16,206 nucleotides of DNA from a virus, in the IMG/VR virus record IMGVR_UViG_3300025312_000019. One strand, given 5' to 3'. The notes below the pieces were generated by a model. It was not told the DNA's origin. It was given only the letters and a program-made list of their open reading frames with translations, and ran no database searches. Both the position numbers and the translations under genes were made by a program. Each line of letters opens with the position of its first letter. The stretch's first letter is position 1. This document shows, in pieces, positions 571 through 16,206 of this stretch.

Positions 571-614
571 GAGGTTGCGCACGTCTAGGGGTTCCACGCA
601 ACCGAGTATACCAC

Positions 615-713: not shown

Positions 714-733
714 CTCTCGGCTCCCTTCTCTCT

Positions 734-872: not shown

Positions 873-882
873 CAGTCTCTTC

Positions 883-1875
883 TTATGCGAGCTTGTGTGC
901 GATGAGACAGCTGTTGGCTAGCACCGTGGTCGCCGTGGCGTTAGAAGTGTTCTGTGCCCATTGGAGTTGGAGGTTACCGGGGGTCGCGCCACATACGACG
1001 ATGGCTTCGATGATGACCAGGGTAGGGTCGCTGACGTCGAGGATGCCAGGGGAGCGGTCGACGGCAGCATCCTGGAGGGTGGCGCTGTAGGTCACGAATG
1101 GGGTCGCCGTTACGCCGATTACTGGGCCAAAGTAGGTGTGCTTGACCGTTGCGCCGGCGGGGACAGTGAAGGCGTATTTGATGTCGCCAGCTTGGGCCGC
1201 CGTGACCATGAGTTTAAAGCGGACTTCCCAGATTTCGTTGGCGGCCATGGCGAGGAGCAGGTGGTTGTCGTTCTGGAGGACTGTGCTGCTGGTAACGGTC
1301 TCGTCGGCGGTCTTGCGCACGGTGGTGGGGCCGCCGCTACCCGTCCCGACTTCCGTCCAGGCGGTAGCGCCGTCGTTGTTGCAGTAGAGCTTGTTGTTGG
1401 TGGTGTCCCAGTACAACGTCCCCTCGGCCTCGGAGTGGGACGGCGCTCCGGCCCCGGTCTGTATCTTGAGGCGGCCCGTGATGCCGGTCACGTCCCAGTT
1501 GCCGGTGATAGCCATGGCCTGGCCGCCGATGTCGTCGCCCGCGGCTGCGGCATGGGCGGCGGCGTGTAGCTGGGCGTGGTGCTGGTCGGCAGTGACGTTC
1601 GTTAGGCTGGCGTGAGACTTCTCGGTGAGCTGGGCGAGGCGGCTGAAGGTCTCGCCGCGTACAACCTCGCTCCACGCTGCGCCGGTGTCGCGGTAGAGGA
1701 TGCCGGTATCGGTGGCCCAGTAGAGGCGGTTGGCGACGGCTGCGGCGGGTTTGGCGGCGTCCAGGCCGGACAGGATGACGCCGATCTCCGACAGGTCTAG
1801 TGTGATGTTGAACTTGTCGGCGGGGGATTCGGCTACGTCGAAGCCGGCCCCGAAGTCGATCTTGAATGTGGTCAT
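883..1875 (-). CDS. Tail fibre / receptor-binding protein (330 aa)
   Basis: ATG 1875 overlaps the upstream stop (ATGA). Repeated fibre-like motifs are present: LYWATDTGILYRDTGAAWSEV and LYWDTTNNKLYCNNDGATAWTEV. The C-terminal part is beta-rich and ends ...NLQLQWAQNTSNATATTVLANSCLIAHKLA. The R-rich N-terminal extension in the track (to 2061) is a shadow of the upstream gene. Confidence 0.8.
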   Translation of the reverse strand: MTTFKIDFGAGFDVAESPADKFNITLDLSEIGVILSGLDAAKPAAAVANRLYWATDTGILYRDTGAAWSEVVRGETFSRLAQLTEKSHASLTNVTADQHHAQLHAAAHAAAAGDDIGGQAMAITGNWDVTGITGRLKIQTGAGAPSHSEAEGTLYWDTTNNKLYCNNDGATAWTEVGTGSGGPTTVRKTADETVTSSTVLQNDNHLLLAMAANEIWEVRFKLMVTAAQAGDIKYAFTVPAGATVKHTYFGPVIGVTATPFVTYSATLQDAAVDRSPGILDVSDPTLVIIEAIVVCGATPGNLQLQWAQNTSNATATTVLANSCLIAHKLA

Positions 1876-2207
1876 GGTGTGCCTCCTACTAGGACGCCGC
1901 CTTCGTACACTTCGATTAGGGTTAGGGTTGCGCCGACGGTTCCTACGCTTACGCCGCTCTCTAGCACTTCGACGTCTAGACCTGCGGCTGGTAGGGCTCC
2001 CTGTACGGTGATGATAACGGCGTCGTCGGGGTTGTCGTCGGTGAAGAAGAGGACGGCGCATTCACGATCGGCTACGACGTCGGCGGCGGGGATGTCCGTG
2101 GCCACGGGCACGGCGAGCACGAGCGTGGGTAGCGAGCTTACGAGTTGCACGTCGGCCTTGTGGGTCACGGCGTCGTAGGCCTTGATGATGGCGCGGTGCA
2201 CCTGCAT
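1872..2207 (-). CDS. Small tail spike / OB-fold protein (gpV / gp138-N-like), 111 aa
   Basis: The pattern AIIKAYDAVTHKADVQL...LPTLVLAVPVATDI...ECAVLFFTDDNPDDAVIITV resembles the baseplate-spike OB-fold N-domain. It sits directly after the hub-like gene, and its start shares one nt with the upstream stop (TGATG). Confidence 0.5.
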   Translation of the reverse strand: MQVHRAIIKAYDAVTHKADVQLVSSLPTLVLAVPVATDIPAADVVADRECAVLFFTDDNPDDAVIITVQGALPAAGLDVEVLESGVSVGTVGATLTLIEVYEGGVLVGGTP

Positions 2208-4222: not shown

Positions 4223-4249
4223 GCTGGCCCTATTCTACACGGTAGCGTG

Positions 4250-4876
4250 TCAGGGGCCTGGGTCGCTGGACTGGCTGGGCACGGGGTCGGTCTCGACGTA
4301 GAGGCGGCGGGTGCGGAGTTTCTGGCGCTTGCGGAGTAGCGCCTGGAAGCGTCCCAGGTAGTGGGCGGCGAGCTTCTCCCAGTCGGTGGCGGCGCGTTGG
4401 CCGCCGGTGTTCAGGGAGTCGGTGGCGTCGACCTGCTCCTGGAGGCAGGCGTAGCCAGCGGCGCCGATTAGCACAAGCTCGATCTGGGCGACGTCCAGGG
4501 TGGTGCTGCTGGCGCCCAGGGTGTGGGGGCCTTCCCAGTAGACGTAGGTGTTCTCGATGGCGGCAGGAGCAGCGTCGGTGAGCATGGTCAAGGTGTTGCC
4601 CCAGATGGCGAAGCCGACGAAGTTCTGGGGCCAGGAGCCGACGGGCCACTCGACGGCGCGGACGTTAATGCGGCCGGTTAGGGCGGAGATACTGATGTCT
4701 CGGCTGCCCGCGACGGTCACGACGGTGGTCTTGTTCTGGTAGGGGATGGCTTTCGAGAACTCTTCCAGGGCTTTCTCGATGGCGCGGGTGAGCTCGGCGT
4801 CGGACCAGATGGCAGAGGCGGCGTCCTTTAGCTCGACGCGAAGGTCGGCGAGAGCGTCGGCTAGGGGGGTGGCCAT
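4250..4876 (-). CDS. Putative head-tail adaptor / connector protein (208 aa)
   Basis: GGGAGG lies upstream of ATG 4876. The N-terminus LADLRVELKDAASAIWSDAELTRAIEKALEEF resembles gp6-like connector N-termini. The gene lies between the head and tail genes. Confidence 0.5.
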   Translation of the reverse strand: MATPLADALADLRVELKDAASAIWSDAELTRAIEKALEEFSKAIPYQNKTTVVTVAGSRDISISALTGRINVRAVEWPVGSWPQNFVGFAIWGNTLTMLTDAAPAAIENTYVYWEGPHTLGASSTTLDVAQIELVLIGAAGYACLQEQVDATDSLNTGGQRAATDWEKLAAHYLGRFQALLRKRQKLRTRRLYVETDPVPSQSSDPGP

Positions 4877-4888
4877 AGGGCCTCCCTG

Positions 4889-5299
4889 CTAGGCGGCGGT
4901 GGAACCGGCGCGCACGCTGGGGGCGACGTAGATCTCGGTGGCGGAGAGGATATAGCCAAGGATGGTGTTCACGTCGCCGGTGGTGGCGGGGGCGGTCTCG
5001 GTGTAGCCGCCGCCGACGCCTGCCCCTTCCTCGTTGTAGACGAGGCCGCCGACGGTGCCGGCGGTGAAGCCGCCGATGATGGCCTCGCGGCAGACCTCGA
5101 TCTCGTCGCCGCTGACGCCGCCCTGAAGGGCGATCAGCTTGCCCTGGATGGCGGTGGCGACGGTGGCCAGGGCGCGTTTCCAGCCGGTGGCGTAGCCGAT
5201 TAGGTCGCCCGCAATGACGGTGCCGGAGAGAGCGACTTTGAACTTAGGACCGATGGCCCGGACGGTTCGGTTGCGAGGGCTGGCTTCGGTGAGCGCCAT
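4889..5299 (-). CDS. Putative head decoration / cement protein (DUF2190-like), 136 aa
   Basis: A Gly/Val/Ala-rich, beta-type sequence lying just downstream of the capsid gene. Confidence 0.45.
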   Translation of the reverse strand: MALTEASPRNRTVRAIGPKFKVALSGTVIAGDLIGYATGWKRALATVATAIQGKLIALQGGVSGDEIEVCREAIIGGFTAGTVGGLVYNEEGAGVGGGYTETAPATTGDVNTILGYILSATEIYVAPSVRAGSTAA

Positions 5300-5301
5300 G
5301 G

Positions 5302-5436
5302 CTACTTCTCCTTAGACGGCTTCGTGGGGGCTGGTGCGACGGGTTGGACGAGGGCGGTCCCGCAGTTGGAGCAGGAGATGCCGTCCTGCTCTAGCAGGCA
5401 CTTGCTCTGACAGCGGGGGCAGTAGACGCCGGCCAT
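5302..5436 (-). CDS. 44-aa zinc-ribbon mini-protein (MAGVYCPRCQSKCLLEQDGISCSNCGTALVQPVAPAPTKPSKEK)
   Basis: ATG 5436 overlaps the capsid-gene stop (TAATG). It has a CxxC...CxxC pattern and high GC3. The 71-aa track ORF has a spurious N-terminal extension inside the capsid gene. Confidence 0.6.
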   Translation of the reverse strand: MAGVYCPRCQSKCLLEQDGISCSNCGTALVQPVAPAPTKPSKEK

Positions 5437-6377
5437 TAGTTTGTCCAGTCTCCGGAGCTGAGGCCGTCCATGCGGGCCATGGCGACGCTGCTGAGTAGGG
5501 CCAGGCCGCAGTACCACTTCACGCGATCTCGTTTGGCGTCCTTCGTCTCCAGGGAGCCTACGCGTTCGACTTGGATTCCGCCGCCTGCTTCCAAGCCAAA
5601 GAGGGCGTCACCACCAAACTTCAGCGCGAAGATGCTGGAGGACGCGCCGCCGGTCTTGGCGGAGTACTTGCTGGAGGCTAGGAGTTCGGTGTCTACCATG
5701 AAGTCGTTGATGAGGATGGGGATCCCGGACCAGAGTTGGGCAAGGTAGCCTAGAGCGCCGACTGGGGCGGACTGGAGTGCCCAGCCTTGCGACCGGGCAA
5801 GCTTCTGGATGCCTCGGCGCGTGCGGCGGCTCATCATGAGGGCGGACGGACCGCCGACGATGCAGTCGCAGAGCTGGTCAAGTTGGGTGAAGGTGCCGAC
5901 GGCGGGGGTGGTGCTGCTGCCCAGGTGGACGTTCTGGGCGGCGGCTAGGGCTTCGGCGGTGACATGGAGGCCGTTGAAGCCCTTGGGGTCGACGGCTAGC
6001 TCGCCGTAGACGAACTCGTCCTGGAACTCCCGGGCGACGGCCTTAGCCTTCATTGCCAGGACTTCGGCTTCGAGGTCTTGCTCGTTGGAGCGGGTGAGAG
6101 CGAGGAAGTTGTCGATGTCGGCGTCGCCGCCCAGAATCTTGAGGGTGGCGGTGACGGCGGTAACGGTAGGTGTTCCTTCGACCCAGGTGTCGCCGGGGTT
6201 GTAGAACTGTGCGCCGCCGAGGGTGGCCTCGCGGTTGTAGGTGAGGCTGTTGCCGAGGATTTCGGCGAACGGTAGGAGGTTGAGGACGGGGGACTCGGCG
6301 ACGATGGCCTCCACAACGCCCTTGATGAGTTGGGTGCGGCTGTACTTGTCGGCTTCGGCTACGGTTTCAAATGCCAT
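5436..6377 (-). CDS. Major capsid protein, HK97 fold (313 aa)
   Basis: GGAG lies 8 nt before ATG 6377. The sequence is typical of HK97-like capsids (LPFAEILGNSLTYNREATLGG...LKILGGDADIDNFL...QDLEAEVLAMKAKAVAREFQDEFVYG). The gene follows the portal and scaffold genes. Confidence 0.9.
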   Translation of the reverse strand: MAFETVAEADKYSRTQLIKGVVEAIVAESPVLNLLPFAEILGNSLTYNREATLGGAQFYNPGDTWVEGTPTVTAVTATLKILGGDADIDNFLALTRSNEQDLEAEVLAMKAKAVAREFQDEFVYGELAVDPKGFNGLHVTAEALAAAQNVHLGSSTTPAVGTFTQLDQLCDCIVGGPSALMMSRRTRRGIQKLARSQGWALQSAPVGALGYLAQLWSGIPILINDFMVDTELLASSKYSAKTGGASSSIFALKFGGDALFGLEAGGGIQVERVGSLETKDAKRDRVKWYCGLALLSSVAMARMDGLSSGDWTN

Positions 6378-6383
6378 GGGGTT

Positions 6384-6764
6384 CTACTCCGTCATTCCTG
6401 GGCCTGGGTGGTTGAGGGCAAAGGCGATGCGGCTGACGCCGCGAACGCCGTCGGGGACCTGGATGGTGGCTCGCTGTATGCCTCCGCCGGTGGGGAGTCG
6501 AACCCCTGTGTTGGTGGCGGCGGCGGCTGCCTGGGCCGTCTCGATCTGCTGGCGCACGTGGTCGGCGACGGCGCGGGCGCTGTCGATGCTCTGGGCCAGG
6601 GTGGTCAGGTCAGCGCCGGTGAAGGCGGCGTCGGGGAGGTCAGGGTTGGCGGCGCGTAGAGCGGTCCGGGTGGTCTCTAGGGCCTGGGCCAGTTGGGCCT
6701 GTAGGGCCGTTAGAGGGTCGGGGTTGTCGTCTTGGCCGCCGGTCTGCTCGTTCTCGTCGGACAT
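6384..6764 (-). CDS. Scaffolding protein (126 aa)
   Basis: AGGAGG lies 5 nt before ATG 6764. The protein has an acidic N-terminus and an Ala/Gln-rich helical composition. It lies between the portal and capsid genes. Confidence 0.6.
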   Translation of the reverse strand: MSDENEQTGGQDDNPDPLTALQAQLAQALETTRTALRAANPDLPDAAFTGADLTTLAQSIDSARAVADHVRQQIETAQAAAAATNTGVRLPTGGGIQRATIQVPDGVRGVSRIAFALNHPGPGMTE

Positions 6765-6791
6765 TCTCGCCTCCTGATTCTGCGCATGAGC

Positions 6792-8168
6792 TTATGCCGA
6801 TGGTACGTTCTTTGTCAAATCGGGTGCCGGTGGAACCTGGGCCCAGTCCCTAGCTTCTTGTAGGGCCTCCTGGTAACGGGCGTCGGGGTCGTGCTCCCCT
6901 AGCCGTGACATGGATGTCTTACGGGTGCTGAGTCCGGCGGCGATCTGGGCGCTTTCGTTTCTGATCTCGGCAGCGCGGTCGTAGATGGAGGGAGCGGCCC
7001 AGGCTATGGTGACGCGTCCGGTGGTGGCGTGGGTGGTGTCGTGGTGCTGGTCGTATATCTGGAGGGCGAGCAGTGCCCGGCGCTTGTAGGCGTCGGTGCG
7101 GATGAGGCGCTTGCGCTCGCATTTTTGCAATAACGGCTGAAGCTGCACCTGTAGGGCAATGCCCGACAGGTCGCGTTCGGTGGACCCGAAAGCTGTTCGG
7201 GGTGTCTCCGTGACGGCGTAGAGGGTTTCCAGGAGGGATTCGAGATAGTCAATATGGAGGCGGACACCTCCTCCGCTGAGTAGGTCTAGCAGGTAGGCCT
7301 TGGCTTTCTCCGGGAGATCCCATACTGCCCCAGGCTCGGCCTGGATGTCGCTGGCCTGTTCTACGTTCTCCAGTACGGTGATGGGGGAGCCGGAAAGTTC
7401 CAGGATGGCGGAGATGCGGGAGAGCTGGGCGTTGATCTGCTTAGCGGGCTCCTTGGCCTGTTCAAGGTCAGAGATTCCGTGCCACTGTTTAGGGACGGAC
7501 AGGTTGGGGTAGATGATGATGGGGATGGCGTTGTATGGGTTGACGCTGGTGGCCACTCGTACTTTGTCGACCCAGATGTCCAGGGTGGTGTCCGTCCAAT
7601 CCTCGATGACCTGGGCGGGGTCTCTCAGGGGCTGGTAGTTCCATAGGGCGCGGATGTCGGCGGCGCTGAGTTGGTAGGTGTGGGCGATCTGGCGGGCGCG
7701 GTCAAAGCGGGCGGGATGGGGCCAGACGTAGAGGCCCTGCATGTCGGGGGCGGTGATGGTGACGCGCTCTTCGTTGGGATTCCAGAGGACCTTGAACGCG
7801 CCGTCGCCCAAGACGGCGGTGTCGATCTCGTTGTCGAAGTCCAGGCGGGGGAGGTTGTTCTCGTCGCTGATCTGGGTCAGGACCTCTTCGGCCTTGGCTG
7901 CGGCCTCGATGTGCTCTGGGCTTTCGCTCAGGGGTTCAACGCCGATGGTTAGGCCGGCCATGACGTAGGAGCTTAGCTTGTTGATTAGGGTGGCGGCGTA
8001 GTTGAAGGTGAGTTGAGGGAGGGTGCGTGGGCGGCGGCGCTGGGGCCGGTCCCACTGTTGGCCTCCGTAGAAGTCCAGGTTGCTCTTGTAGGCGGTGAGC
8101 CGCGGGCGGTCTCGGTTGGCGATGCGCTGGGGAAGGGGGATAGATTCGTCGTCGGTGTTCATGTTCAT
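6792..8168 (-). CDS. Portal protein (458 aa)
   Basis: The start is set at ATG 8168 (MNMNTDDES...), preceded by AAGGAG at 7 nt; the terminase stop TAA lies inside that spacer. The portal-like motif NLDFYGGQQWD is present. The gene follows the terminase gene. Confidence 0.88.
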   Translation of the reverse strand: MNMNTDDESIPLPQRIANRDRPRLTAYKSNLDFYGGQQWDRPQRRRPRTLPQLTFNYAATLINKLSSYVMAGLTIGVEPLSESPEHIEAAAKAEEVLTQISDENNLPRLDFDNEIDTAVLGDGAFKVLWNPNEERVTITAPDMQGLYVWPHPARFDRARQIAHTYQLSAADIRALWNYQPLRDPAQVIEDWTDTTLDIWVDKVRVATSVNPYNAIPIIIYPNLSVPKQWHGISDLEQAKEPAKQINAQLSRISAILELSGSPITVLENVEQASDIQAEPGAVWDLPEKAKAYLLDLLSGGGVRLHIDYLESLLETLYAVTETPRTAFGSTERDLSGIALQVQLQPLLQKCERKRLIRTDAYKRRALLALQIYDQHHDTTHATTGRVTIAWAAPSIYDRAAEIRNESAQIAAGLSTRKTSMSRLGEHDPDARYQEALQEARDWAQVPPAPDLTKNVPSA

Positions 8169-8172
8169 GCGC

Positions 8173-9531
8173 TTACTCCTTTGTCTGGATTCTAGCACGG
8201 GCAAGGCGTGGGGCGGGCGCTTCCTGCGCGGCGCGGTTGCAGAGGGCGACGCTGACGGCGTAGTCGTCGTGGCCCTCCGCCTCGGGTACGGCCCAGGCGA
8301 CCATGCGGTTGGGTTTGTAGGTCGCTCGGCACTGGCGAAGCTGGAATACCACTTTCTGGTATTCCAGTGTTTGGTCGTTGGCCCATATCTTCAGCCGGCC
8401 GGTGGTGGCGGCGGCCTGGAGGTCGTAGCCTAGCTGGGACTTGCTGGACTCGGTGAAGCGGACGGGGATAAGGGCGCCGCTGGGCAGGACCTGTTCTAGA
8501 TAGAGGGTCAGGGCCTCGCCTAGAGTCGTGCTGTCTACGGCCACACGGCGAACGTGCCAGGTCTCGCGCAGGAGCTGGGCGATAAGGGGGTAGAGGTCGG
8601 CGTGGGAGGTGCCTTGCCATTCGTAGGCCTGGACGATGTGCGCTGTGGGCGGCTGGCGGGGCTTCTCCCACATGACGCGGGCGATGGTCAGGACGGTGGA
8701 ATCTCGGCCCTTCAGTGTTGTGGCGGCGGTGTCCTCTCCGGCTACGTCGATTCCGGCGACGTAGGACTGTTCGGCCTGGGGCATGTCCTGGCGTGGGTAG
8801 TCGCCCTGGAGGGCGGCGAGTTGGGCGGGGGAGAGTAGGCGTCCGGTGCCCGGTAGGGTTTGGAGCTCGTACTGCGTCAAAAAGAGGGGGTGATTTGCCC
8901 CTAGCCGGTCGCGTTCGGTCTGGACGTATCGGGCGTAGGCGGGGTTGTGCTCGGCGGCGACTGTCCAGGGGACAAGGAACACGCGGCGTAGGCCGTCCTT
9001 GCGCTGGGCCTCCTCCCCGGCGGCGATGGCTTGGGCGAGTAGGCTGTCGTCCGTCCAGGGGGTGCCGTAGTAGACGGTGGTGGCGTTGGTGGTAGAGGCC
9101 ATGGGGCGGAAGTCCTTGTTCCACTTGTCGGGGTTGATATCCTGGGCCTCGTCCGCCTCCAGGAGAATGTCGGCGGTGGCCCCGACTACGTGGGATTCAG
9201 GGGCGGCGCTGTGGAAGGCCCAGCGGGCGCGGCCAAGGTAGATGTACGGATCCCGCGCCCGCCAGATGGCGCCCATGCCCTGGTCGTTCAGGGTGGCGGT
9301 GAGCCGGTCGCGGGATATCTGCACCTGGGGTACGGCCGTGGGCGCAGCCTTGATGCCGGTGCCGCCCCTGGCGTAGTTCAGGGTGAGTAGGGCGGTCTCG
9401 ATCTGGGCGCTGGTTTCGTTCTTCCCCGCCTGGCGGGCCATCATCACGGCGATAGAGTGGCCGAGGCCGTAGACGGCGCTGTGGAGAGCGGCCTTATAGA
9501 CCTGGGCCTGGTAGGGGCGGAGGGTGATCAC
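8173..9531 (-). CDS. terL: Terminase large subunit (452 aa)
   Basis: GTG 9531 overlaps the upstream stop (GTGA). Walker A-like ARQAGKNETS, Walker B-like ILLEADEAQDI and the nuclease-domain motif VAGIDVAGED are present. The track ORF start at 9648 overlaps the zinc-ribbon gene and looks like an artefactual extension. Confidence 0.9.
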   Translation of the reverse strand: MITLRPYQAQVYKAALHSAVYGLGHSIAVMMARQAGKNETSAQIETALLTLNYARGGTGIKAAPTAVPQVQISRDRLTATLNDQGMGAIWRARDPYIYLGRARWAFHSAAPESHVVGATADILLEADEAQDINPDKWNKDFRPMASTTNATTVYYGTPWTDDSLLAQAIAAGEEAQRKDGLRRVFLVPWTVAAEHNPAYARYVQTERDRLGANHPLFLTQYELQTLPGTGRLLSPAQLAALQGDYPRQDMPQAEQSYVAGIDVAGEDTAATTLKGRDSTVLTIARVMWEKPRQPPTAHIVQAYEWQGTSHADLYPLIAQLLRETWHVRRVAVDSTTLGEALTLYLEQVLPSGALIPVRFTESSKSQLGYDLQAAATTGRLKIWANDQTLEYQKVVFQLRQCRATYKPNRMVAWAVPEAEGHDDYAVSVALCNRAAQEAPAPRLARARIQTKE

Positions 9532-9713
9532 CGGCGGCTCCGGGCCTGGTGGTGTCCGTAGCGGGGGCGCTTGCCCCGCGGTGCTGCTTGGAGCTTGCCT
9601 TCGGGGTCGTAGGAGTCGATCGGTTCCGTCCAGCCACAGTTGACGCACTCACGATAGGCGCCGTGCCGGTCCTGGTTGATCATGACGAAGCCGCTGCAGC
9701 GGGGACAGGTCAT
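9528..9713 (-). CDS. 61-aa zinc-ribbon protein directly upstream of terL (possible DNA-recognition / small-terminase role)
   Basis: MTCPRCSGF...ECVNCGW has a CxxC-17-CxxC pattern and a basic tail. It has an ATGA overlap upstream and a GTGA overlap with terL. The function is inferred from position only. Confidence 0.6.
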   Translation of the reverse strand: MTCPRCSGFVMINQDRHGAYRECVNCGWTEPIDSYDPEGKLQAAPRGKRPRYGHHQARSRR

Positions 9714-9856
9714 GCGGCGATCTCCTGGCGCGTGAGAAGGTAGAGAAGGAAGCGGAGGCCGAAATGGTCAAGGCGGCGTAGTCGGCGGTGACGGGCGCGT
9801 TTCTTGGTCTTGCCTGGCCGCCGGTTGTGGCCGTCGTAGGGGGGCTTGTCGTTCAT
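9710..9856 (-). CDS. Hypothetical 48-aa basic protein (MNDKPPYDGHNRRPGKTKKRARHRRLRRLDHFGLRFLLYLLTRQEIAA)
   Basis: Found by hand; it is below the track cutoff. It has ATGA overlaps at both ends and high GC3. The C-terminus resembles the first helix of a sigma-r4/LuxR-type helix-turn-helix (HTH). Confidence 0.5.
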   Translation of the reverse strand: MNDKPPYDGHNRRPGKTKKRARHRRLRRLDHFGLRFLLYLLTRQEIAA

Positions 9857-10083
9857 GGGGCCTCAAAGAGGGGGAGTTGTTGGGGGTCCTCCTGGGTGGT
9901 GAAGGTGACGGCGACGGTGCGGGTGGTTTGCCGGGCGAATGTGGCGAAGTCGTCGACCCAGGTGAGACGGAGGCGAACGTCCAGGTAAGGTCCGGCCTTG
10001 TCGTGCTTGAGGCTGACGGTTTCTACAGAACCGCGGGCGAGTGTGTCGTGGGATGGGCGGTCGGTTAGCGATTGGTCTGGCAT
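9853..10083 (-). CDS. Hypothetical protein (76 aa)
   Basis: ATG 10083 is preceded by GGAG at 5 nt. It begins MPDQSLTDRPSHDTLARGSVETVSLKHDK... The longer track ORF start lies inside the DUF3850 gene. Confidence 0.55.
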   Translation of the reverse strand: MPDQSLTDRPSHDTLARGSVETVSLKHDKAGPYLDVRLRLTWVDDFATFARQTTRTVAVTFTTQEDPQQLPLFEAP

Positions 10084-10337
10084 GGTGGCTCCAGTCTGAC
10101 TGCTCGGATGCTTAGTGCAACGAAGTCCTTGCGTAGTCCGGGTTCCGTGTCGATGTAGGTCACTTGGGCGAGTTGGCTTAATCCGCTGTACGTTGCGGGG
10201 CCTGGGTCCCACTCGCGCAGAAGTAACAGGTCGCCGACTTGAAAGTTGCGGTCGTTGCGCCGCACTTCGACAGTTTTCTTACCTTTCAAGAGGGCGTAGT
10301 AAGGGACCGGCCAAGTCTTCAGTTCATGTATGTTCAT
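10065..10337 (-). CDS. DUF3850 / ASCH-like (PUA-fold) domain protein (90 aa)
   Basis: HELKTWPVPYYALLKGKKTVEVRRNDRNFQVGDLLLLREWDP...QVTYI matches the characteristic DUF3850 pattern (ELKxWP...G.K..E.R.NDR.FqvGD.l.L.E). AAAGGAG lies upstream of ATG 10337. Confidence 0.8.
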   Translation of the reverse strand: MNIHELKTWPVPYYALLKGKKTVEVRRNDRNFQVGDLLLLREWDPGPATYSGLSQLAQVTYIDTEPGLRKDFVALSIRAVRLEPPCQTNR

Positions 10338-10524
10338 TTTGATTCTCCTTTCGGAGGGGGTAGATGTCTGCGAAGGCGAGCTGGGCGGTGGTGGTCTTGG
10401 CCCAGCGGACGGCCTGGTGGCGCTGGTGGGCGCGGGCTAGGTAGCGGAAGAGGGCGCGGCGCTTTGGCCGCTCGGCGATGCGGCCTGCTTGCTGCCAGAT
10501 GGCGCGGTAGGTGGAGAGGCTCAT
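10324..10524 (-). CDS. Hypothetical basic protein (66 aa)
   Basis: ATG 10524 has an ATGA overlap with the upstream stop. GC3 is high. It begins MSLSTYRAIWQQAGRIAERPKRRALFRYLARAHQRH... Confidence 0.55.
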   Translation of the reverse strand: MSLSTYRAIWQQAGRIAERPKRRALFRYLARAHQRHQAVRWAKTTTAQLAFADIYPLRKENQNEHT

Positions 10525-10655
10525 GGCGTCCCCCAGACGCCGGAGGTGATCCAGCCGTAGGCGGCGACGCCTAGAAGTGTCAGGAGGAGGAGGAGGTACG
10601 GCCAGGCCCACGCCTTGTCTTCTTCCGGGGTCAGCCGGGTGCGTCGGGGTCTCAT
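10521..10655 (-). CDS. 44-aa single-pass membrane protein
   Basis: ATG 10655 has an ATGA overlap. It has a TM segment: MRPRRTRLTPEEDKAWAWPYLLLLLTLLGVAAYGWITSGVWGTP. Confidence 0.55.
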   Translation of the reverse strand: MRPRRTRLTPEEDKAWAWPYLLLLLTLLGVAAYGWITSGVWGTP

Positions 10656-10873
10656 GACGTGGCCCAGTCGCGGACGGTGCGGAGTTGCTCGATGGCTTCT
10701 CGGGTGCGGGTCTCGACTGCCTCGAGCTCGGCGGCGGCCTGGAGGTATTTCTGCCTGCGTTCTTGGACGCGGCGGAGGAGGGCGTGGCCGGCGGCCAGCC
10801 ACTCGTTAAGGGCGTCGCCTAGGGCGGTGTCGGTGGGCTCGTGGCCGTTGTGGTTGTCGCTGGGGGTGGTCAT
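10652..10873 (-). CDS. Hypothetical coiled-coil protein (73 aa)
   Basis: ATG 10873 has an ATGA overlap with the upstream stop. It has a helical heptad-like sequence: LNEWLAAGHALLRRVQERRQKYLQAAAELEAVETRTREAIEQLRTV. Confidence 0.6.
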   Translation of the reverse strand: MTTPSDNHNGHEPTDTALGDALNEWLAAGHALLRRVQERRQKYLQAAAELEAVETRTREAIEQLRTVRDWATS

Positions 10874-11442
10874 AGTAGTTGTTCCTTTCTCTGGCTGGTG
10901 GAGGTCCAGCCGCAATACGGGCAGGTTAGGAAGGGACCCACGTCCGCGATCTCCTCGTGGAAGAGGGTGCGTATCAGGCCAGCGGGGGACCGGATGGCTT
11001 TGTACTGGTTTGGGGTGAGCTCGTCCAGGTAGTCCAGGATGGCGGCTAGGGCGGGCGCCGCTGGGCTGTGGCGGAAGGCGAAGGCGTGGGCACCGAAAAA
11101 CCCGTGGGCCTGGAGACGGGCTGAGAGTCCGGCCAGGATGGTGTTTGATTGAACGTCTTGTTGTGTTGTGTGAGTGGTAGGCGCTCCTTTCTGCTTGAAG
11201 GGTAGTAGGGTTATTGGCTTGGCTGGGCCCCGGATGGCGTCCAGCAGGTCGAGGCGGCGTTTGATTGTCCGGTTGGTGCTGCGTAGGTACTTGATGGCTT
11301 CGGGCCGGAGGGCTGCGGGTAGGGAGCCGATGATCTTGGCCAGCACAGGGTCGGCGCTGCGGCGTCCGTGCTGGAGGGCGTTGCGGTTGCCTTTGGGGGC
11401 ACCGGCTCCTGGCCTCTTGCCGCCTCGGTTGCCCTTAGTCAA
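10870..11442 (-). CDS. GNxNAxxHG-motif protein (about 190 aa from TTG 11442), C-terminal CPYCGW motif. Possible DNA-binding, replication or packaging role.
   Basis: This is the 3' part of the 364-codon frame, where GC3 is high again. The candidate TTG start overlaps the stop of the 74-aa ORF (cTTGACTAA). The basic N-terminus plus KGNRNALQHG parallels the 113-aa protein at 15427..15768. Confidence 0.55.
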   Translation of the reverse strand: MTKGNRGGKRPGAGAPKGNRNALQHGRRSADPVLAKIIGSLPAALRPEAIKYLRSTNRTIKRRLDLLDAIRGPAKPITLLPFKQKGAPTTHTTQQDVQSNTILAGLSARLQAHGFFGAHAFAFRHSPAAPALAAILDYLDELTPNQYKAIRSPAGLIRTLFHEEIADVGPFLTCPYCGWTSTSQRKEQLL

Positions 11443-11659
11443 GGGAGCCTCGCAGGAACTGGTCGCCGGTGGGCCGTCGCTTCCGCTGTCCCGCGTTGCG
11501 TCGGGCGGCTTGCTTGGTGGCGACCTGGAGGCGGTAGCGGGTGATGGCGTTAAGGGTGGCGGCGGAGGGTCGCCCAAAGGCGGCGAAGGGGGACCCGGGT
11601 GTGTACGCCAGAAGCGAGAGCTGCCGGGGGTCCGGGTCAGGCCGGTGGTGGGTTGCCAT
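11435..11659 (-). CDS. Hypothetical 74-aa protein, embedded out of frame in the 364-codon ORF
   Basis: AGGAGG lies 7 nt before ATG 11659, with an in-frame TAG immediately upstream. GC3 is clearly higher in this frame than in the overlapping long frame, which here uses TTA, CCT, CCA and TCA. Confidence 0.6.
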   Translation of the reverse strand: MATHHRPDPDPRQLSLLAYTPGSPFAAFGRPSAATLNAITRYRLQVATKQAARRNAGQRKRRPTGDQFLRGSLD

Positions 11660-11964
11660 CTAGCAACCTCCTGCCCGTGGGAGTCTTCGACGTAGAGGTG
11701 ATCCCAGCACCAGAAGAGGACCCGGTGGCCGGGGTTCTTCTGAGCGTGCTCTCGGATGTGGATGTTTAGGCGGAGTGGCTTGAACGGCGGTAGGTGGCGG
11801 CCGTTGGGGCAGTCTATACAGACCTGGCGTCCAAAGCAGGTGTCTGTTGTGGCCCAGTGGGCGCGATCGGGCAGGCCGGCGGCGCGACGCAGGATGTCGT
11901 CTGCGGTGGGCGTGGTGGGCCTCCTTCGGGGGGGCTGATGCCCACCAGGGTACGGAACAATCAA
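11660..11964 (-). CDS. Cys/His-rich N-terminal module (about 100 codons) of the 364-codon frame; start and 3' end unresolved
   Basis: GC3 is high and the sequence is protein-like: ADDILRRAAGLPDRAHWATTDTCFGRQVCIDCPNGRHLPPFKPLRLNIHIREHAQKNPGHRVLFWCWDHLYVED. The frame has no stop before 10870. The TTG at 11964 lacks an SD, and an internal GAAGGAGG has no canonical start after it. Confidence 0.4.
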
Positions 11965-12110
11965 ACGGAGGATAGAGGGGAAGGGTGGATAGGGGGTTAA
12001 GGGACTCTATATGTTCTGTCAAGTTCTCCTCGCTCTCCCTCCACGGGCTGGGGGCCTCCGAGGTGGAGGCTCTCGGTGGCGCCCCAGCGAGCAGGAGCTC
12101 GTATAGGACG

Positions 12111-12139
12111 TTTGTACGCCTTGCTTGGGTGGATGTCAA
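12111..12139 (-). promoter_or_regulatory. Sigma70-like promoter for the leftward operon: TTGACA-17 nt-TACAAA
   Basis: On the minus strand, TTGACA lies at 12139..12134 and TACAAA at 12116..12111, with a 17-nt spacer. It sits about 150 nt upstream of the first leftward ORF. Confidence 0.35.
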
Positions 12140-12154
12140 GGGCCTTATGTCGTC

Positions 12155-12183
12155 TTGACGGAGGGAGTTCTGGGGTCTAGGAT
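12155..12183 (+). promoter_or_regulatory. Sigma70-like promoter on the plus strand: TTGACG-17 nt-TAGGAT, back to back with the leftward promoter
   Basis: TTGACG lies at 12155..12160 and TAGGAT at 12178..12183, with a 17-nt spacer. The GTG of the plus-strand ORF begins 7 nt after the -10 element. Confidence 0.3.
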
Positions 12184-12189
12184 GCGGGC

Positions 12190-12363
12190 GTGTTGGAGAC
12201 GTTGGAGTCCTCGCTTCCCTTCGTTGTTCCGGCCCTGATGGGTTTGGCGGCGTTGTTCTTGGCTGCTCCGGTGGATCGGTGGTGGGAGCGGTTCTCGGAC
12301 TGGCTGGAGGGCCGACGGGGGCCTCCGGCCGGACCGGAGGGCCCCCGTGACGTGGCCGGTTAG
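12190..12363 (+). CDS. 57-aa small membrane protein, the only plausible plus-strand ORF; possibly leaderless
   Basis: Hand translation from GTG 12190: VLETLESSLPFVVPALMGLAALFLAAPVDRWWERFSDWLEGRRGPPAGPEGPRDVAG, then a stop. GC3 is about 80% and there is one TM helix. It is below the track length cutoff. Its stop overlaps the stop of the convergent 71-aa ORF. Confidence 0.35.
   Translation: MLETLESSLPFVVPALMGLAALFLAAPVDRWWERFSDWLEGRRGPPAGPEGPRDVAG
12317..12346. terminator. GC-rich hairpin between convergent ORFs (possible bidirectional terminator; no U-tract)
   Basis: GGGGGCCTCCGG (12317..12328) pairs with CCGGAGGGCCCCC (12334..12346). This gives 12 bp with a 1-nt bulge and a 5-nt loop. Confidence 0.35.
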
Positions 12364-12575
12364 GGCCTTATCCTGGCCGAGAGGCTGGTGAGTCGCCAGC
12401 CTTGGGGCGGCGAGACGATGCTCCGGCGGAGTGCGAGTTTAGCTTGCTGGGCTGTCTCGCACGTTATGTCAGCTTTCACCTCCTTGATATCTCCGGTGGT
12501 GTGTTCGAAGATGGCTGTCACGCGCCACGTTCGAGCGCCCATCTGGAAGCCGCTTGGCGCCAGGTAGAGTTTCAT
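12360..12575 (-). CDS. Hypothetical protein (71 aa)
   Basis: ATG 12575 has an ATGA overlap with the upstream stop. GC3 is moderate. No motif was recognised. Confidence 0.55.
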   Translation of the reverse strand: MKLYLAPSGFQMGARTWRVTAIFEHTTGDIKEVKADITCETAQQAKLALRRSIVSPPQGWRLTSLSARIRP

Positions 12576-12763
12576 GCGTGGTTCTCTCCGTTGTACCTGT
12601 GGCGGAGCTCCTGGTCGATGGTGTGCTGTCGGGTTAGGACGTCCTGGTCGGGCTCGTCGTCGTCATAGTAGAGCTTGATAACCCAACCGTAGGTGCCATC
12701 TTTGTAGCGGCTGAGCTCTACGCTGCTGCGTCCGGCGGCGATCACTGGGGTTTCTGTGGTCAT
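12572..12763 (-). CDS. Hypothetical acidic protein (63 aa)
   Basis: ATG 12763 is preceded by GGAAGGGG. It begins MTTETPVIAAGRSSVELSRYKDGTYGWVIKLYYDDDEPDQD... The track's longer N-terminus is intergenic. Confidence 0.6.
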   Translation of the reverse strand: MTTETPVIAAGRSSVELSRYKDGTYGWVIKLYYDDDEPDQDVLTRQHTIDQELRHRYNGENHA

Positions 12764-12778
12764 GGTGGTTTCCCCTTC

Positions 12779-12810
12779 CGGGGCCGCCGGACCTGCGCTC
12801 GGCGGCCCCG
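12779..12810 (-). promoter_or_regulatory. Intercistronic 11-bp perfect stem-loop
   Basis: CGGGGCCGCCG (12779..12789) pairs with CGGCGGCCCCG (12800..12810), with a 10-nt loop. It lies between the 119-aa and 63-aa ORFs. Confidence 0.4.
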
Positions 12811-12822
12811 ACTTGTGGCCGG

Positions 12823-13182
12823 CTATCCGGCCTTGACCTTGTTCTGGCAGTATTCGTTGGTCTCGTCCTTCTGCGGGCAGTACCAGCCTCCCCACTTGGA
12901 GGGGGTCATGGGGCCGTGTTCTGGGCAGTTTGGCGCGCCGTTCGTCTTGCCGTTGGGGGTGGGCCTGGACGCCTTGGCTGGGGCCGGTGTGGGCCTGGCC
13001 TGCGGCGCTGGTGCTGGCGTGGGCTGCGTGCCGGGCAGAAAGCCGGCTTCGGGAAAGAGGCGGTGGGCCTCGGATAGGTGCTTCTCAAACTCCTCAACGG
13101 TGTGGGCTCGGACCGATAGCAGTATCTCCGAGCCGGTCCCGCTGACGTACTTGGCGTTGACGCTGAACGGGTGGTCTGACAT
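12823..13182 (-). CDS. 119-aa protein with a Pro/Thr/Ala linker and a C-terminal zinc-ribbon (CPEHG...WYCPQK...YC, topoisomerase-type C4-like)
   Basis: AAAGGAG lies before ATG 13182. It begins MSDHPFSVNAKYVSGTGSEILLSVRAHTVEEFEKHL... and ends ...NCPEHGPMTPSKWGGWYCPQKDETNEYCQNK. Confidence 0.65.
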   Translation of the reverse strand: MSDHPFSVNAKYVSGTGSEILLSVRAHTVEEFEKHLSEAHRLFPEAGFLPGTQPTPAPAPQARPTPAPAKASRPTPNGKTNGAPNCPEHGPMTPSKWGGWYCPQKDETNEYCQNKVKAG

Positions 13183-13193
13183 GGTTCTCCTTT

Positions 13194-13331
13194 CTAGGGG
13201 CAGTCCTGGAGGTCTGAGCCGACGGCGATAGCGGTTTCTCGGTCTTGACAAGGGTCAAAGTCTGTCCAGGGGTTGCCCGAGACTAGGGCTAGGGCTGTTA
13301 TCAGTAGACAGAGGATGCCCCGCCGGATCAT
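13194..13331 (-). CDS. 45-aa secreted mini-protein with an N-terminal signal-peptide-like segment
   Basis: Found by hand. ATG 13331 has an ATGA overlap and GGAGG lies 6 nt upstream. Sequence: MIRRGILCLLITALALVSGNPWTDFDPCQDRETAIAVGSDLQDCP. Confidence 0.5.
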   Translation of the reverse strand: MIRRGILCLLITALALVSGNPWTDFDPCQDRETAIAVGSDLQDCP

Positions 13332-13525
13332 TTCTCACCTCCTTTCACGTCTGACTCGAACCGCTTTTCAATGGCTTCTACGAGGGGTTTGACGAAGTCC
13401 CAACAGTAGTCACACCAGCCGAAACCGCCGTAGCAGTGCGTGCTGGGCTGGCCACAAGTGCAAAAGGTTACGTCTACCGCCTTCAAGAGCGCGGGCGGGA
13501 ATACCTCGCGGATGTTCTTCTTCAC
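13328..13525 (-). CDS. 65-aa Cys-rich (likely metal-binding) protein
   Basis: GTG 13525 is preceded by GGGAGGTG at 7 nt and overlaps the upstream stop (GTGA). Sequence: VKKNIREVFPPALLKAVDVTFCTCGQPSTHCYGGFGWCDYCWDFVKPLVEAIEKRFESDVKGGEK. Confidence 0.6.
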   Translation of the reverse strand: MKKNIREVFPPALLKAVDVTFCTCGQPSTHCYGGFGWCDYCWDFVKPLVEAIEKRFESDVKGGEK

Positions 13526-13842
13526 GATGACACCTCCCAGAGCGAAAGCTGGCCGGCCAACACGGCGACCGGCGACCGGCGACGGAGAGCGCGACGGCGG
13601 CGCTGAATGCAGCAGCCGGAGGAACAGGAATGAAGCGCGCAACAGCCGCAGCAGAACGCGCAACTGCAGGCGGCGAGAGCGCCGATGACCAGACCGCAGG
13701 CGGCGCAGCAAAGCTGACACGGGGACCCGAACGGGTGAGAGCAAAGGATCATGACGACGCCCCACACCCTGACCAGCCACAAGCCGGACAGAACCAGCAG
13801 CGACCACCCGCCGGATGGAGAGAACACCCACACTCTGGACAC
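13522..13842 (-). CDS. 106-aa membrane protein with an extremely Cys-rich core (14 Cys in about 45 residues)
   Basis: GTG 13842 lies 9 nt after AAGGGGGTG. GC3 is about 80-86%. There are two hydrophobic segments. The core is CSHPFGSPCQLCCAACGLVIGALAACSCAFCCGCCALHSCSSGCC. It has a GTGA overlap with the next gene. Confidence 0.5.
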   Translation of the reverse strand: MSRVWVFSPSGGWSLLVLSGLWLVRVWGVVMILCSHPFGSPCQLCCAACGLVIGALAACSCAFCCGCCALHSCSSGCCIQRRRRALRRRSPVAVLAGQLSLWEVSS

Positions 13843-15179
13843 CGCACGTTACACCCCCTTTTTCTAGAGCCCCCCCTGCCGGGGCCTAAAAGGCCCAGGA
13901 AAGCGGCGGCGCGGCGAAGGCACCCGAAGGGCCGTAACGAAGTGAAGGAGGCGTGAGCGGAGCGGAGCCTTGCCGAAGCCGCGAAGCCGCGCATAATGGG
14001 CCTGGCCCCGGCAGGGAAGGCTGGGGGGGAGGTGGTTTAGTAGTTCCTGCGCCCCTTCGCCTCCATGAAAACGACTGGCCGTTCGGCGGAAACGACTAGA
14101 TACGAAGCGTATCTGCGCTGTGGGCGTCGTTCCGGCGGCGACGGAGGGCGCGGCTCCCTATATGCGGGGGCTTGTCCCCGCTCTTCAATGGTCCGCGCCC
14201 GATGTGGCCGCTCTTCTCTTCCGCGAGCCGTGACGCCGGGGGATGTGGGGTTTAGCTAATGCGGCCTTCGGGGGGCTGGACGGCGTGACGGCGAGCGCTT
14301 GACCCTGGGTCTGGGGCGTTGCCCCAGGGTTGACGCCTGTCCGCGGGCGCCTAGCGCGGCCAGAAACGGGGGGCCGGAAGCGCCGAGCGGGGCCCGCAGC
14401 GGGAAGCGCGGAGTGCGGGCCCCTAGCCGAGGGCGCGCTCTTGAACGCGCCCCGGCGGCCCGGGGGTGGGGGCCCTGGCGGGCGAGTCGAGCGGTGGGGT
14501 GGTGGCCGCGTGACGGCTGGCGCTCGTTCGCGATGTGGGCGGCTATACAGGATGATGTTGGGGGGGGCGGGGTTCTTGGCCGCCCACCAAACCGAGCCGC
14601 CGCCCGAACCGATTTCGTGCGGCGATTCCCTACGAACAGCGCCGTTGAGGGCGGCGGCGAGTAAGGCGGCCATACGCGAGCGAAACGTGCGAAGAGGCCG
14701 TTGTTCCCCATTGTGAGGAGTCACGGTCAAATCCGTAGGACGCCACCGAGAAGCGAGAGTCCAAGCGTAGACCGCACAGAGTACCGTGAGAACGGCGGCC
14801 TCTTCAAGCGGACGGCCTTTGTAGTGTAGGGGGGGGCGGTGGTCCTCGTGGGTGGTGGAAGGGCGGCCCAAGGCGCACGGGGCGTAAGCCCCGCCTCGTG
14901 GGGGGAGGTAAAGCGGCCCCTGCGAGGCCTCCGGAGTTAGTGACGGTTTGACCCGACCCATGTATCTTCCGGCCGAGCAACAGGGGACGCGGGGGAGCCA
15001 GCCCGCGCTGAGGGGGGAGCATAGGGGCTGCCTCGGGGGCGTCAACAGCCCTGGGAAGCGCGGGCTGGTGAGGGGCGCTTCTGGATGCGCCGACGGGACG
15101 GCCCTGGAGGGGTGCGCTGCCCTTCCTGTGGCGGGGCTGTTATTAGACACTCAGCGCTGCACCGTGGTACTGGTGGTTG
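13843..15179 (+). ncRNA. 1,337-nt non-coding island; candidate large structured RNA and/or cis-acting ori or pac region. Wobble evidence favours the plus strand for about 14160..15070. The strand and ends are not established.
   Basis: There is no SD-led ORF and no codon-position GC periodicity. Five perfect local helices of 10 bp or more are present, plus nested helices, a GGGGC-GUAA-GCCCC hairpin (14879..14892), and six helix-flanking G-U positions that work only on the plus strand. No known RNA family was recognised by eye. Confidence 0.4.
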
Positions 15180-15314
15180 CTATTTACCCCCCCACTTGCG
15201 CCAGCTGTTGATGACCTTCACGACGTAGGCGGCAGCGAAGGACGCGCAGGCGACGGTGAGCGTGGCCAGGGCGGCGACGACTACCTCGAGGTAGACGTGT
15301 AGGGGTTCGCTCAT
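15180..15314 (-). CDS. 44-aa single-pass membrane protein (holin-like candidate)
   Basis: ATG 15314 has an ATGA overlap. Sequence: MSEPLHVYLEVVVAALATLTVACASFAAAYVVKVINSWRKWGGK, one TM with a basic C-terminus. The track ORF has a spurious R-rich N-terminal extension. Confidence 0.6.
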   Translation of the reverse strand: MSEPLHVYLEVVVAALATLTVACASFAAAYVVKVINSWRKWGGK

Positions 15315-15424
15315 GGTGTGGGCCACGCGCCGCCGAGGACGCCGAGGATGTAGACGACGATGGCGACGATGATGGCCCTGGCCATGGCGCGGAACTTCGG
15401 GTCGAGCCAAAGTCTCTTTATCAT
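15311..15424 (-). CDS. 37-aa single-pass membrane protein (holin / antiholin-like candidate)
   Basis: Found by hand. ATG 15424 lies 7 nt after AAGGGAG. Sequence: MIKRLWLDPKFRAMARAIIVAIVVYILGVLGGAWPTP. GC3 is very high. Confidence 0.55.
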   Translation of the reverse strand: MIKRLWLDPKFRAMARAIIVAIVVYILGVLGGAWPTP

Positions 15425-15426
15425 AT

Positions 15427-15768
15427 CTAGGCTCCCTTCAACGTGCGCTCTATGGAGTCAAGGACGTTGGACATGGCCTCGGTCAGGCGGTCGGCGTCGG
15501 TGCCGGAGATGTGGTAGTGGGTCGCTGCGAGTCGGGCGAGCGTGCCGAGAGTCTGACGAAGGAGGTCAAGGTCCGTTGCGTCGGCGCTCAGTAGGCGCTC
15601 GGCCCGTTCTCGGAGCAGGGCGATCTCACGGTGTAGGTCGGTGGGGGAGAGAGTGAGCGCTAGGGCGAACCGCTCCTGTCCGACTCGGTCGAGAACGCTA
15701 CTGTAGAGGCCGTGCTTGACCGCGTTCAAGTTGCCGGGTTGTCCGCCCGGTTTCCTCTTCGGTTTCAC
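15427..15768 (-). CDS. GNxNAxKHG-motif protein (113 aa); possible DNA-binding or small-terminase-like protein
   Basis: GTG 15768 is preceded by AGGAAAGG. The basic N-terminus MKPKRKPGGQPGNLNAVKHGLYS is followed by ...EIALLRERAERLL..., a pattern I recall from a family of small phage-associated helical proteins. The function is not established. Confidence 0.65.
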   Translation of the reverse strand: MKPKRKPGGQPGNLNAVKHGLYSSVLDRVGQERFALALTLSPTDLHREIALLRERAERLLSADATDLDLLRQTLGTLARLAATHYHISGTDADRLTEAMSNVLDSIERTLKGA

Positions 15769-15994
15769 TGTGCCTTTCCTCGGTGGTGTGTGTGTGGGTG
15801 CGGGTGGTGATGCGTTCGTGCGTTCGGGTTCGCTTGCGGGTTTGGGTTGTGGCGTTGATCTCGGCTAGCTCTTCGGCGGCGCTGACGACAAGGGTCAGGG
15901 CTGCGAGTTCCCAGTGCTGGTCTGTGACGATGGCGCCCGTCGGCGTGTGCTGCTCGATGTGGATGTGCGCCTTGACTCGTTGCGGTTGCGTCAC
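15698..15994 (-). CDS. Hypothetical protein (98 aa) with a low-complexity T/R/H/E tail
   Basis: GTG 15994 overlaps the endolysin stop (GTGA). The first 50 or so codons have high GC3. The last 71 nt overlap the next gene in a frame with poor GC3. The tail contains a (TG)6 / (CA)6 tract at 15786..15797. Confidence 0.5.
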   Translation of the reverse strand: MTQPQRVKAHIHIEQHTPTGAIVTDQHWELAALTLVVSAAEELAEINATTQTRKRTRTHERITTRTHTHTTEERHSETEEETGRTTRQLERGQARPLQ

Positions 15995-16206
15995 GGGAGT
16001 CTCCGATCTCTGTCGGGGTAGAAGGTGGGTTTGTCGAACGTTGGGTCGTCGGGTGGGACTCGTCGGACTGCGTCCCAGTCGGCGACGTACTTCGGTTCGG
16101 GGATGTGAACGAGCGCCGTGAAGAGGTCGGCGTACACTTCGTCGTCGCCTTCACGCTGTAGCAGGGGGATGTTGAGCGTCATGGGGATCTCCTCCCGTGG
16201 GGACTG
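15991..16206 (-). CDS. C-terminal part of the same endolysin ORF. The unique part is 15991..16107; 16108..16206 duplicates 1..99. The track's 63-aa ORF (15991..16182) is its in-frame tail.
   Basis: ATG at 75 (=16182) is in frame with ATG 570 (495 nt = 165 codons). The frame is open through the junction to TGA at 15991. The total ORF is 228 aa. Confidence 0.8.
   Translation of the reverse strand, partial: QSPREEIPMTLNIPLLQREGDDEVYADLFTALVHIPEPKYVADWDAVRRVPPDDPTFDKPTFYPDRDRRLP
16108..16206. repeat. Terminal direct repeat, copy B (identical to 1..99). Implies a circular or circularly permuted sequence of 16,107 unique bp.
   Basis: Exact 99-nt identity with the window start. Confidence 0.95.

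Follow-up and report, generated by a model that had tools for sequence, protein, structure and literature searches.

A gene-free island with conserved direct and inverted motifs as a candidate cis-acting DNA control region in a small podovirus-like phage

Introduction

The genome-end region of phage T7 combines a terminal repeat with a non-coding left end that carries early promoters and the primary origin. A gene-free stretch that can be set beside this region, and beside the cos region of phage lambda and iteron-type origins, occurs in the virus represented by IMG/VR record IMGVR_UViG_3300025312_000019, of which we analyzed 16,206 nt (hereafter, the window). This stretch, referred to here as the island, occupies 1.3 kb of an otherwise tight genome and contains three short motifs (M1, M2, and M3), which together with the island itself are the subject of this report.

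Phage-associated RNAs provide a further point of reference, in that GOLLD and ROOL are both large and ornate (PMC12286853). The initial annotation of the island had offered two possibilities: a large structured RNA antisense to the phage genes, or a cis-acting region for replication or packaging. We found that the feature is real and that the earlier observation was largely accurate. The antisense structured RNA was not supported, while the cis-acting region was supported in outline, by direct and inverted motifs and by linkage to terminase genes, from which we infer its likely role. Our best reading is that the island acts mainly as DNA and not as a large folded RNA; with a probability of roughly 0.55, it would be a cis-acting DNA control region (serving packaging, replication, or the control of early genes) joined to a lineage-specific spacer.

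Results

The non-coding character of the island, which had been assigned to positions 13843-15179, was upheld by flat codon-phase guanine-cytosine (GC) content and by the lack of a conserved open reading frame (ORF). Specifically, codon-phase GC was flat from ~13900 to 15150, compared with differences of 0.25-0.5 between phases in the flanking genes, and the left border was refined to 13848 by the GTG start of the first early gene at 13847. The longest open frame, of 321 codons, shares its strand with the other genes, and the annotation pipeline predicted a 258-aa gene from it in a near-identical sister contig (L004). Its proline-, arginine-, and alanine-rich translation matched no Pfam, PHROG, or NCBIfam family, and tblastn and tblastx found no homologue among ~250 related loci (L-numbers), although neighboring proteins are 35-65% identical there. 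We judged the frame to be spurious, probably a chance opening in 69% GC DNA, in line with the earlier dismissal of it as a gene for want of periodicity. Moreover, the relatives are non-coding at this place too: indels in related islands were mostly not multiples of three, frameshifts included, and substitutions were without 3-periodicity, so that a hidden gene is refuted. The marks of a coding gene (codon-position bias, ORF conservation, indels in frame) were all lacking, and a real gene of atypical composition, with 258-321 codons on the minus strand, is highly improbable.

Downstream of the gene for a small helical protein (the KHG protein, 'KHG100') and small membrane-protein genes, 0.8-1.4 kb of sequence show no codon periodicity in at least 15 relatives with the same gene order (L015, L019, L022, L026, L029, L036, L040, L042, L044, L052, L096, L098, L104, L108, and L263). 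Because the non-coding stretch recurs at the same junction, we regard the island as a feature that the family has retained. Its sequence is another matter, in that islands could be aligned only within subgroups (L036/L052/L099, ~65-70% identical; L029/L042, ~61% identical), and within a subgroup the island was ~65% identical versus 79-91% for flanking genes. When the body of the window's island was compared with the ~250 loci by nhmmer and blastn, only M1 and M2 were matched, and tblastx returned scattered low-complexity noise, with no frame-shifted protein remnants. The near-identical sister contigs (L004-L013) differed by one single-nucleotide polymorphism within the island (14057, T/G) and were therefore uninformative for covariation.

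Local duplications within islands were present only in L052 and L263, and internal repeats or modules as a general property of islands were rejected. In these two loci the duplications are in tandem and ~110-170 nt long, each bearing its own hairpins (L263:1560-1790 and L052:3620-3910), which suggests that the island spacer grows by duplication.

Motif M1 is an array of GTCGTTYC sites, two direct and one inverted, around a palindrome that contains CAGATACG (Table 1), and local GC content is at a minimum there (58-62%). Of the four GTCGTTYY matches in the entire window, three fell inside the 66 nt of M1. The CAGATACG unit with flanking ATTCGTTCC-type repeats was kept in ~10 lineages (L016, L019, L026, L029, L042, L096, L098, L103, L108, and L263). 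A strict dyad form of the site pair, GRAACGAN-N(6-45)-NTCGTTYC, occurred 14 times in 2.1 Mb, with twelve distinct occurrences, and was always at an operon boundary. Four of these ended ~20 nt before the start codon of the large terminase gene (L060, L065, L071, and L072), and five ended ~170-570 nt past the end of that gene (L063, L080, L083, L089, and L091), such that in nine lineages the dyad adjoins the large terminase gene on one side or the other. The remaining three were in the window's island, the island of L015, and a non-coding gap beside the integrase gene of L016. Additionally, in 80 loci found via KHG-like proteins, the M1 8-mer reached 0.67 per kb within the first 500 nt downstream of KHG-type genes, versus ~0.06 per kb elsewhere (~10-fold). 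In the window's own subfamily, the KHG gene is 0.2-1.3 kb away from M1, and the distance to the large terminase gene is measured in kilobases. A phage attachment site (attP) was also considered and rejected, as the window phage lacks an integrase and it is terminase, not integrase, genes that the M1 unit follows.

The second motif, M2, was near-invariant in the window, L063, L093, L176, and L263 and present as a variant in L032, in each case between unalignable flanks; a search of IMG/VR with its exact pattern recovered only 3 contigs. An imperfect palindrome encloses M2 in the window, with a counterpart in L063 and none in L093, L176, or L032, and it is therefore the sequence of M2 and not its fold that is conserved. 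M3 had 2 matches in the window versus 0 expected, and related copies were found in L263. All three motifs fall within 400 nt adjoining the early genes, and the order M1, M2, first early gene is common to the window, L263, and L063. We interpret the motifs as protein-binding DNA sites because they are short, direct or inverted, in helical-phase spacing, and conserved within DNA that is otherwise unalignable, and because of the linkage to terminase genes across gene orders and a strand-symmetric excess of inverted repeats.

The architecture of M1 can also be read as that of an iteron-type replication origin, or of an operator of the main operon, with the KHG protein as initiator or regulator. 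Direct repeats with 21-nt spacing, an inverted copy, a central palindrome, and a local GC minimum are what such a site would have; the dyad's constant placement at operon boundaries, sometimes 20 nt before a start codon, is the position of an operator; and a phage in which no replication gene is recognizable must recruit the host machinery to some site. However, the repeats number two, no initiator gene is recognizable, the GC minimum reaches only 58-62% without a clear unwinding element, and conserved promoter hexamers were not found, while the association with terminase genes across different gene orders favors packaging. We consider the origin or operator reading unlikely.

Selection might alternatively act on nothing except promoter-proximal motifs, with most of the island being functionless DNA, either decayed genes or filler between operons. 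The lack of homologues of the island body and its faster evolution than that of genes fit this proposal, as does the varying placement of M1 within the island, which ranges by lineage from 45 to ~1065 nt from the late genes. Yet an island of this size persists in every same-order relative despite genomes that are otherwise tight, the tblastx comparison detected no remains of decayed genes, and inverted repeats exceed shuffled expectations well in the window and several relatives, making mostly functionless DNA a distinctly unlikely explanation.

The inverted repeats of the island were the basis of its initial description as helix-dense, and all helices, hairpins, and G-T positions listed then are present in the sequence. 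Five Watson-Crick helices, all perfect over at least 10 bp and within 170 nt, were counted, versus 0.48-0.53 in dinucleotide shuffles (five were reached in 0/200 and 1/500 shuffles), and coding windows of equal length had a mean of 0.42 and a maximum of 2, so that the claim of an excess over chance was borne out. Enrichment varied among related islands, with 14 observed in total versus 6.5 expected. With regard to folding energy, the description did not hold beyond one place: among 150-nt windows only 13876-14025 beat shuffles (z-scores: plus strand, -4.9; minus strand, -4.2), as did the palindrome around M2 in a second folding test (-4.5 plus, -4.9 minus). The 1-kb body (14180-15179) was no better than dinucleotide-shuffled controls on the plus strand (z = -0.45), and gave z = -2.10 on the minus strand, where 1/20 shuffles did as well.

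Pairs that extend the helices as G-U on one strand had been taken to mark the plus strand. This was not sustained, since pairs next to perfect helices of 8 bp or more (G-T, 6; A-C, 4; other, 16) were as base composition predicts. With G-U pairs allowed, the plus strand had 21 helices versus 15.1 expected, a number equaled by 18/200 shuffles, and the minus strand had 13 versus 6.1 expected, equaled by 3/200. The helix excess consists of pure Watson-Crick inverted repeats and is strand-symmetric; in GC-rich non-coding DNA, an excess of perfect helices is not by itself a sign of structured RNA.

Searches for known RNAs agreed with the original impression that the island matched no family. Rfam 15, whose families include GOLLD, ROOL, HEARO, OLE, tmRNA, RNase P, group I/II introns, and riboswitches, had no match in the window's island with E-values up to 1 and none at gathering score in 13 relatives, and ARAGORN identified no tRNA or tmRNA. 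The helices of the window itself had no alignable homologue among the related loci. In the only alignable set of islands, which comprised three independent sequences, the structure conservation index was 0.25-0.55 and column-shuffle z-scores were mostly ~0, apart from two local exceptions with consensus-fold z-scores of -2.4 to -3.4.

A new large structured RNA resembling GOLLD or ROOL, whether on the plus strand (antisense) or as a long leader or trailer on the minus strand, would explain why ~1.3 kb of non-coding sequence is retained by a genome of 16 kb and by its relatives, and could claim the excess of perfect local helices, the stable fold around M2, the minus-strand energy of the body, and the two local alignment windows. 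It is disfavored by the Rfam results, by the plus-strand energy and the missing plus-strand G-U excess, by the lack of a consensus structure over most of the related-island alignment, and by islands that diverge faster than genes, with a body that is almost unconserved, and share only short linear motifs, one of which, M2, has kept its sequence without its surrounding helix. We therefore consider a large structured RNA quite improbable, and the antisense version in particular was not supported by these comparisons.

The neighbor of the island on its upstream side, the KHG protein, belongs to a family of ~100-150 aa helical proteins with an invariant N-terminal G-x-Q-P-G-N-x-N-A-x-K-H-G. In L051, L054, L066, L070, and L076, the large terminase gene is directly preceded by that for a homologue, and the family was widespread in Chloroflexota phages and beyond, often in that same position. 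A profile search of 5.8 billion proteins gave hits that were all hypothetical, and an AlphaFold model (all-helical; predicted local distance difference test score, pLDDT, 78) had no significant match in PDB or BFVD by Foldseek. The KHG family may represent an undescribed small-terminase or DNA-binding family.

Coordinates of the island, its motifs and inverted repeats, and the neighboring genes are collected in Table 1.

Table 1. Features of the island and its surroundings, in window coordinates.
Feature	Position	Strand	Remark
Non-coding island between last late gene (44-aa membrane protein) and first early gene	13848..15179	.	flat codon-phase GC
Motif M1, site array around CAGATACG palindrome	14067..14133	.	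GTCGTTYC sites
M1 sites GTCGTTTTC and GTCGTTTCC, 21 nt apart	14067-14075 and 14088-14096	-	
M1 palindrome AGATACG-AAG-CGTATCT, contains CAGATACG	14099-14115		between direct sites and inverted GTCGTTCC
M1 inverted site GTCGTTCC	14126-14133	+	
Motif M2, CTCCTTCACTTCGTTACGGCCCTTCGGGTGC in gene orientation	13920..13950	-	~75-100 nt upstream of first early gene
Motif M3 copy a, GGGGGAGGTGGTTTAG	14025..14040	+	flanks M1
Motif M3 copy b, GGGGGATGTGGGGTTTAG	14238..14255	+	flanks M1, other side
Extended imperfect palindrome enclosing M2, 13-bp perfect core	13868..14022	.	arms 13868-13886/14004-14022
Perfect 10-bp inverted repeat	14389..14423	.	14389-14398/14414-14423
Perfect 10-bp inverted repeat	14596..14658	.	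14596-14605/14649-14658
16-bp inverted repeat, two G-T positions	14691..14805	.	14691-14706/14790-14805, nested 7-bp helix
Perfect 12-bp inverted repeat	14998..15068	.	14998-15009/15057-15068, nested 6-bp helix
321-codon open frame, judged spurious	14185..15150	-	called as 258-aa gene in sister contig L004
100-aa helical KHG protein ('KHG100'), N-terminal motif KPGGQPGNLNAVKHG	15427..15729	-	island's upstream neighbor
Two small membrane-protein genes, late operon end	15180..15424	-	L004 gene calls; pair also in relatives
First early gene, 32-aa zinc-ribbon ORF (RCPECG...CPACGWS)	13749..13847	-	homologous ORF after island in L042
Large terminase	8173..9531	-	family recognized

The genome that surrounds the island is that of a small, podovirus-like phage. 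Window positions 1-99 are identical to 16108-16206, a 99-nt overlap that gives a true genome of ~16,107 bp, and two sister contigs from other samples (L004 and L005) carry the window sequence circularly permuted, with arbitrary break points; on these grounds the assembly is circular, at ~16.1 kb, and the endolysin gene spans the window ends. All genes are on the minus strand, except for one plus-strand gene called in a sister contig. In addition to the large terminase, recognized families were portal, major capsid protein, SU10-type adaptor, and Amidase_2 endolysin. In order of transcription, the island is followed by ~15 small early genes, terminase, portal, scaffold, capsid, and tail genes, and then by endolysin, a 98-aa protein, the KHG protein, and two small membrane proteins, after which the island is reached again. 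No replication or regulatory family was matched by the early proteins, no replication gene was recognizable, and a phage RNA polymerase gene was absent.

On the two sides of the island, the membrane proteins have 37 aa (15311-15424) and 44 aa (15180-15314), and the zinc-ribbon ORF is coupled by an ATGA overlap to the next ORF, which encodes a cysteine-rich, hydrophobic 76-aa protein (13522-13752). The L004 gene caller missed both the zinc-ribbon and the 76-aa ORF, each of which has a counterpart after the island of L042.

Gaps between the other genes had been thought to be under 45 nt throughout, which proved incorrect, as a second gene-free stretch of ~530 nt with flat codon-phase GC is present at ~11660-12190. 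Beside it, a 57-aa gene (12190-12363), the sole plus-strand call in the sister contig, is preceded by a promoter-like site (12155-12183), and windows 12001-12150 and 12301-12450 folded far better than shuffles (z-scores of -3.6 to -3.8). The region ~11660-12363 looks like a divergent regulatory switch.

A terminase profile search brought in >1600 relatives, many of them contigs of 15-17 kb. Among species-representative genomes, the hosts of relatives were almost only Chloroflexota (Dehalococcoidia and Chloroflexia), often with the phage as a prophage in a megabase chromosome; likewise, terminase relatives L180-L258 were almost exclusively from Chloroflexota metagenome-assembled genomes, many within contigs of 1-3 Mb. 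Judging from these chromosomal relatives, a large part of the phage family would be temperate. Integrase genes were carried by L014, L016, and L022/L259. BLAST of the island against GenBank phages gave no match, the large terminase protein matched only distant Bacillus and Streptomyces phages among cultured phages, and a literature search located nothing on this phage family.

Sister strains were identical apart from clustered mismatches, with 20, 10, and 13 differences at 405-559, 4944-4991, and 8830-8929, respectively, in patches of <160 nt that affect the genes for endolysin, a 136-aa protein, and terminase. This pattern suggests short recombination patches and not point mutation. The upper ends of partial contigs of the same strain from other samples were all within 10361-13136, except for L006, which covers 14413-16206 and continues across the window ends through 1-11745, leaving 13137-14412 covered by no partial contig. 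These ends hint at strain heterogeneity in the region of the early genes and the island.

Discussion

Under the reading of the island as a cis-acting DNA control region, its functional core would be the ~400 nt beside the early genes (13850-14260). Here, M3 copies flank M1, M2 follows ~150-190 nt downstream of M1, and the first early gene begins ~75-100 nt further on. A phage DNA-binding protein would assemble on M1, the best candidate being the KHG protein, encoded just upstream of the island, and its binding could start DNA packaging, with M1 as a terminase recognition site of the cos/pac type. Terminase recognition or initiation of packaging is the most likely function of M1 to judge by its neighbors across lineages, and M2 might form part of an early promoter or leader. 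The other ~0.9 kb (14260-15179) would be a lineage-specific spacer rich in inverted repeats, the presence and length of which are kept and the sequence of which is not. It may serve as terminal DNA, either a terminal repeat or a genome end, or supply hairpins for the ends and leaders of transcripts.

Several observations weigh against this reading. The ~0.9-kb body is without an explained function, and sequence alone does not separate packaging, origin, and operator roles for M1. The M1 of the window is 1.3 kb away from the KHG gene, and its distance to the large terminase gene is 4.5 kb. The KHG protein had no significant match among Pfam, PHROGs, NCBIfam, and PDB sequences; its position makes it a candidate for the small terminase or for a DNA-binding protein that partners M1, and both the identity of the M1-binding protein and the effect of binding are what we infer from that arrangement. 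On each strand of the window, scans for sigma-70 promoters picked up a single weak match, and neither of the two is conserved in relatives. Finally, the minus-strand folding energy of the body and the minus-strand helix count with G-U pairs allowed both exceed most shuffles, such that RNA of the sense (minus) strand may contribute.

There is a slim chance that the ~1 kb of fast-evolving DNA, rich in inverted repeats, that all members of the family keep is transcribed on the sense strand, in the form of a long hairpin-studded leader, a trailer, or small RNAs in which structure, and not sequence, matters. If so, the island could be, for example, a host-defence decoy or a device for timing late and early transcription, and such a phage locus for non-coding RNA, which Rfam would not see, would be new in kind.

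As a DNA control region, the island has practical value in a phage family that is uncultured, unannotated, and widespread, both as free ~16 kb contigs and as prophages in Dehalococcoidia and Chloroflexia. M1, M2, and M3 are testable candidates for packaging, origin, or early-control sites, with KHG as the likely DNA-binding partner. Moreover, the motifs could be used to define genome ends and tell complete from permuted contigs, and to annotate hundreds of related contigs in which gene callers place a spurious 258-aa gene.

With regard to the known systems, the island resembles GOLLD and ROOL in being a long non-coding phage stretch with many potential helices. Unlike those RNAs, it has no covariance-model match, no excess folding energy on the strand proposed to be transcribed, no consensus structure over most of the three related islands that could be aligned, and very low sequence conservation. 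The resemblance to iteron origins, such as lambda ori and those of theta plasmids, is partial: direct repeats in helical phase (21 nt) lie in a local GC minimum, but M1 has only two direct copies and one inverted copy, without a clear AT-rich unwinding element or a recognizable initiator gene.

The T7 genome end is alike in position and size, in that the island also lies, on the circular map, as at least 1 kb of gene-free DNA with repeats and hairpins between the last late and the first early gene of a podovirus-like phage. It differs in taking up ~8% of the genome versus roughly 3-4% in T7, and in belonging to a phage that has no RNA polymerase gene and in which no recognizable promoters were found.

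Differences from the lambda cos region (cosQ-cosN-cosB, with repeated R sites for the small terminase) are that the small terminase of the present phage is a candidate only, matching no family by sequence or fold, that 4.5 kb separate M1 from the large terminase gene, and that the site sequences are unrelated to those of lambda. Nevertheless, M1, like lambda cos, has clustered, repeated sites, in both orientations, beside a partly symmetric core, as in a cos/pac region, and is located at the junction of the lysis genes and the next operon, and in a number of relatives its site unit is again found next to terminase genes.

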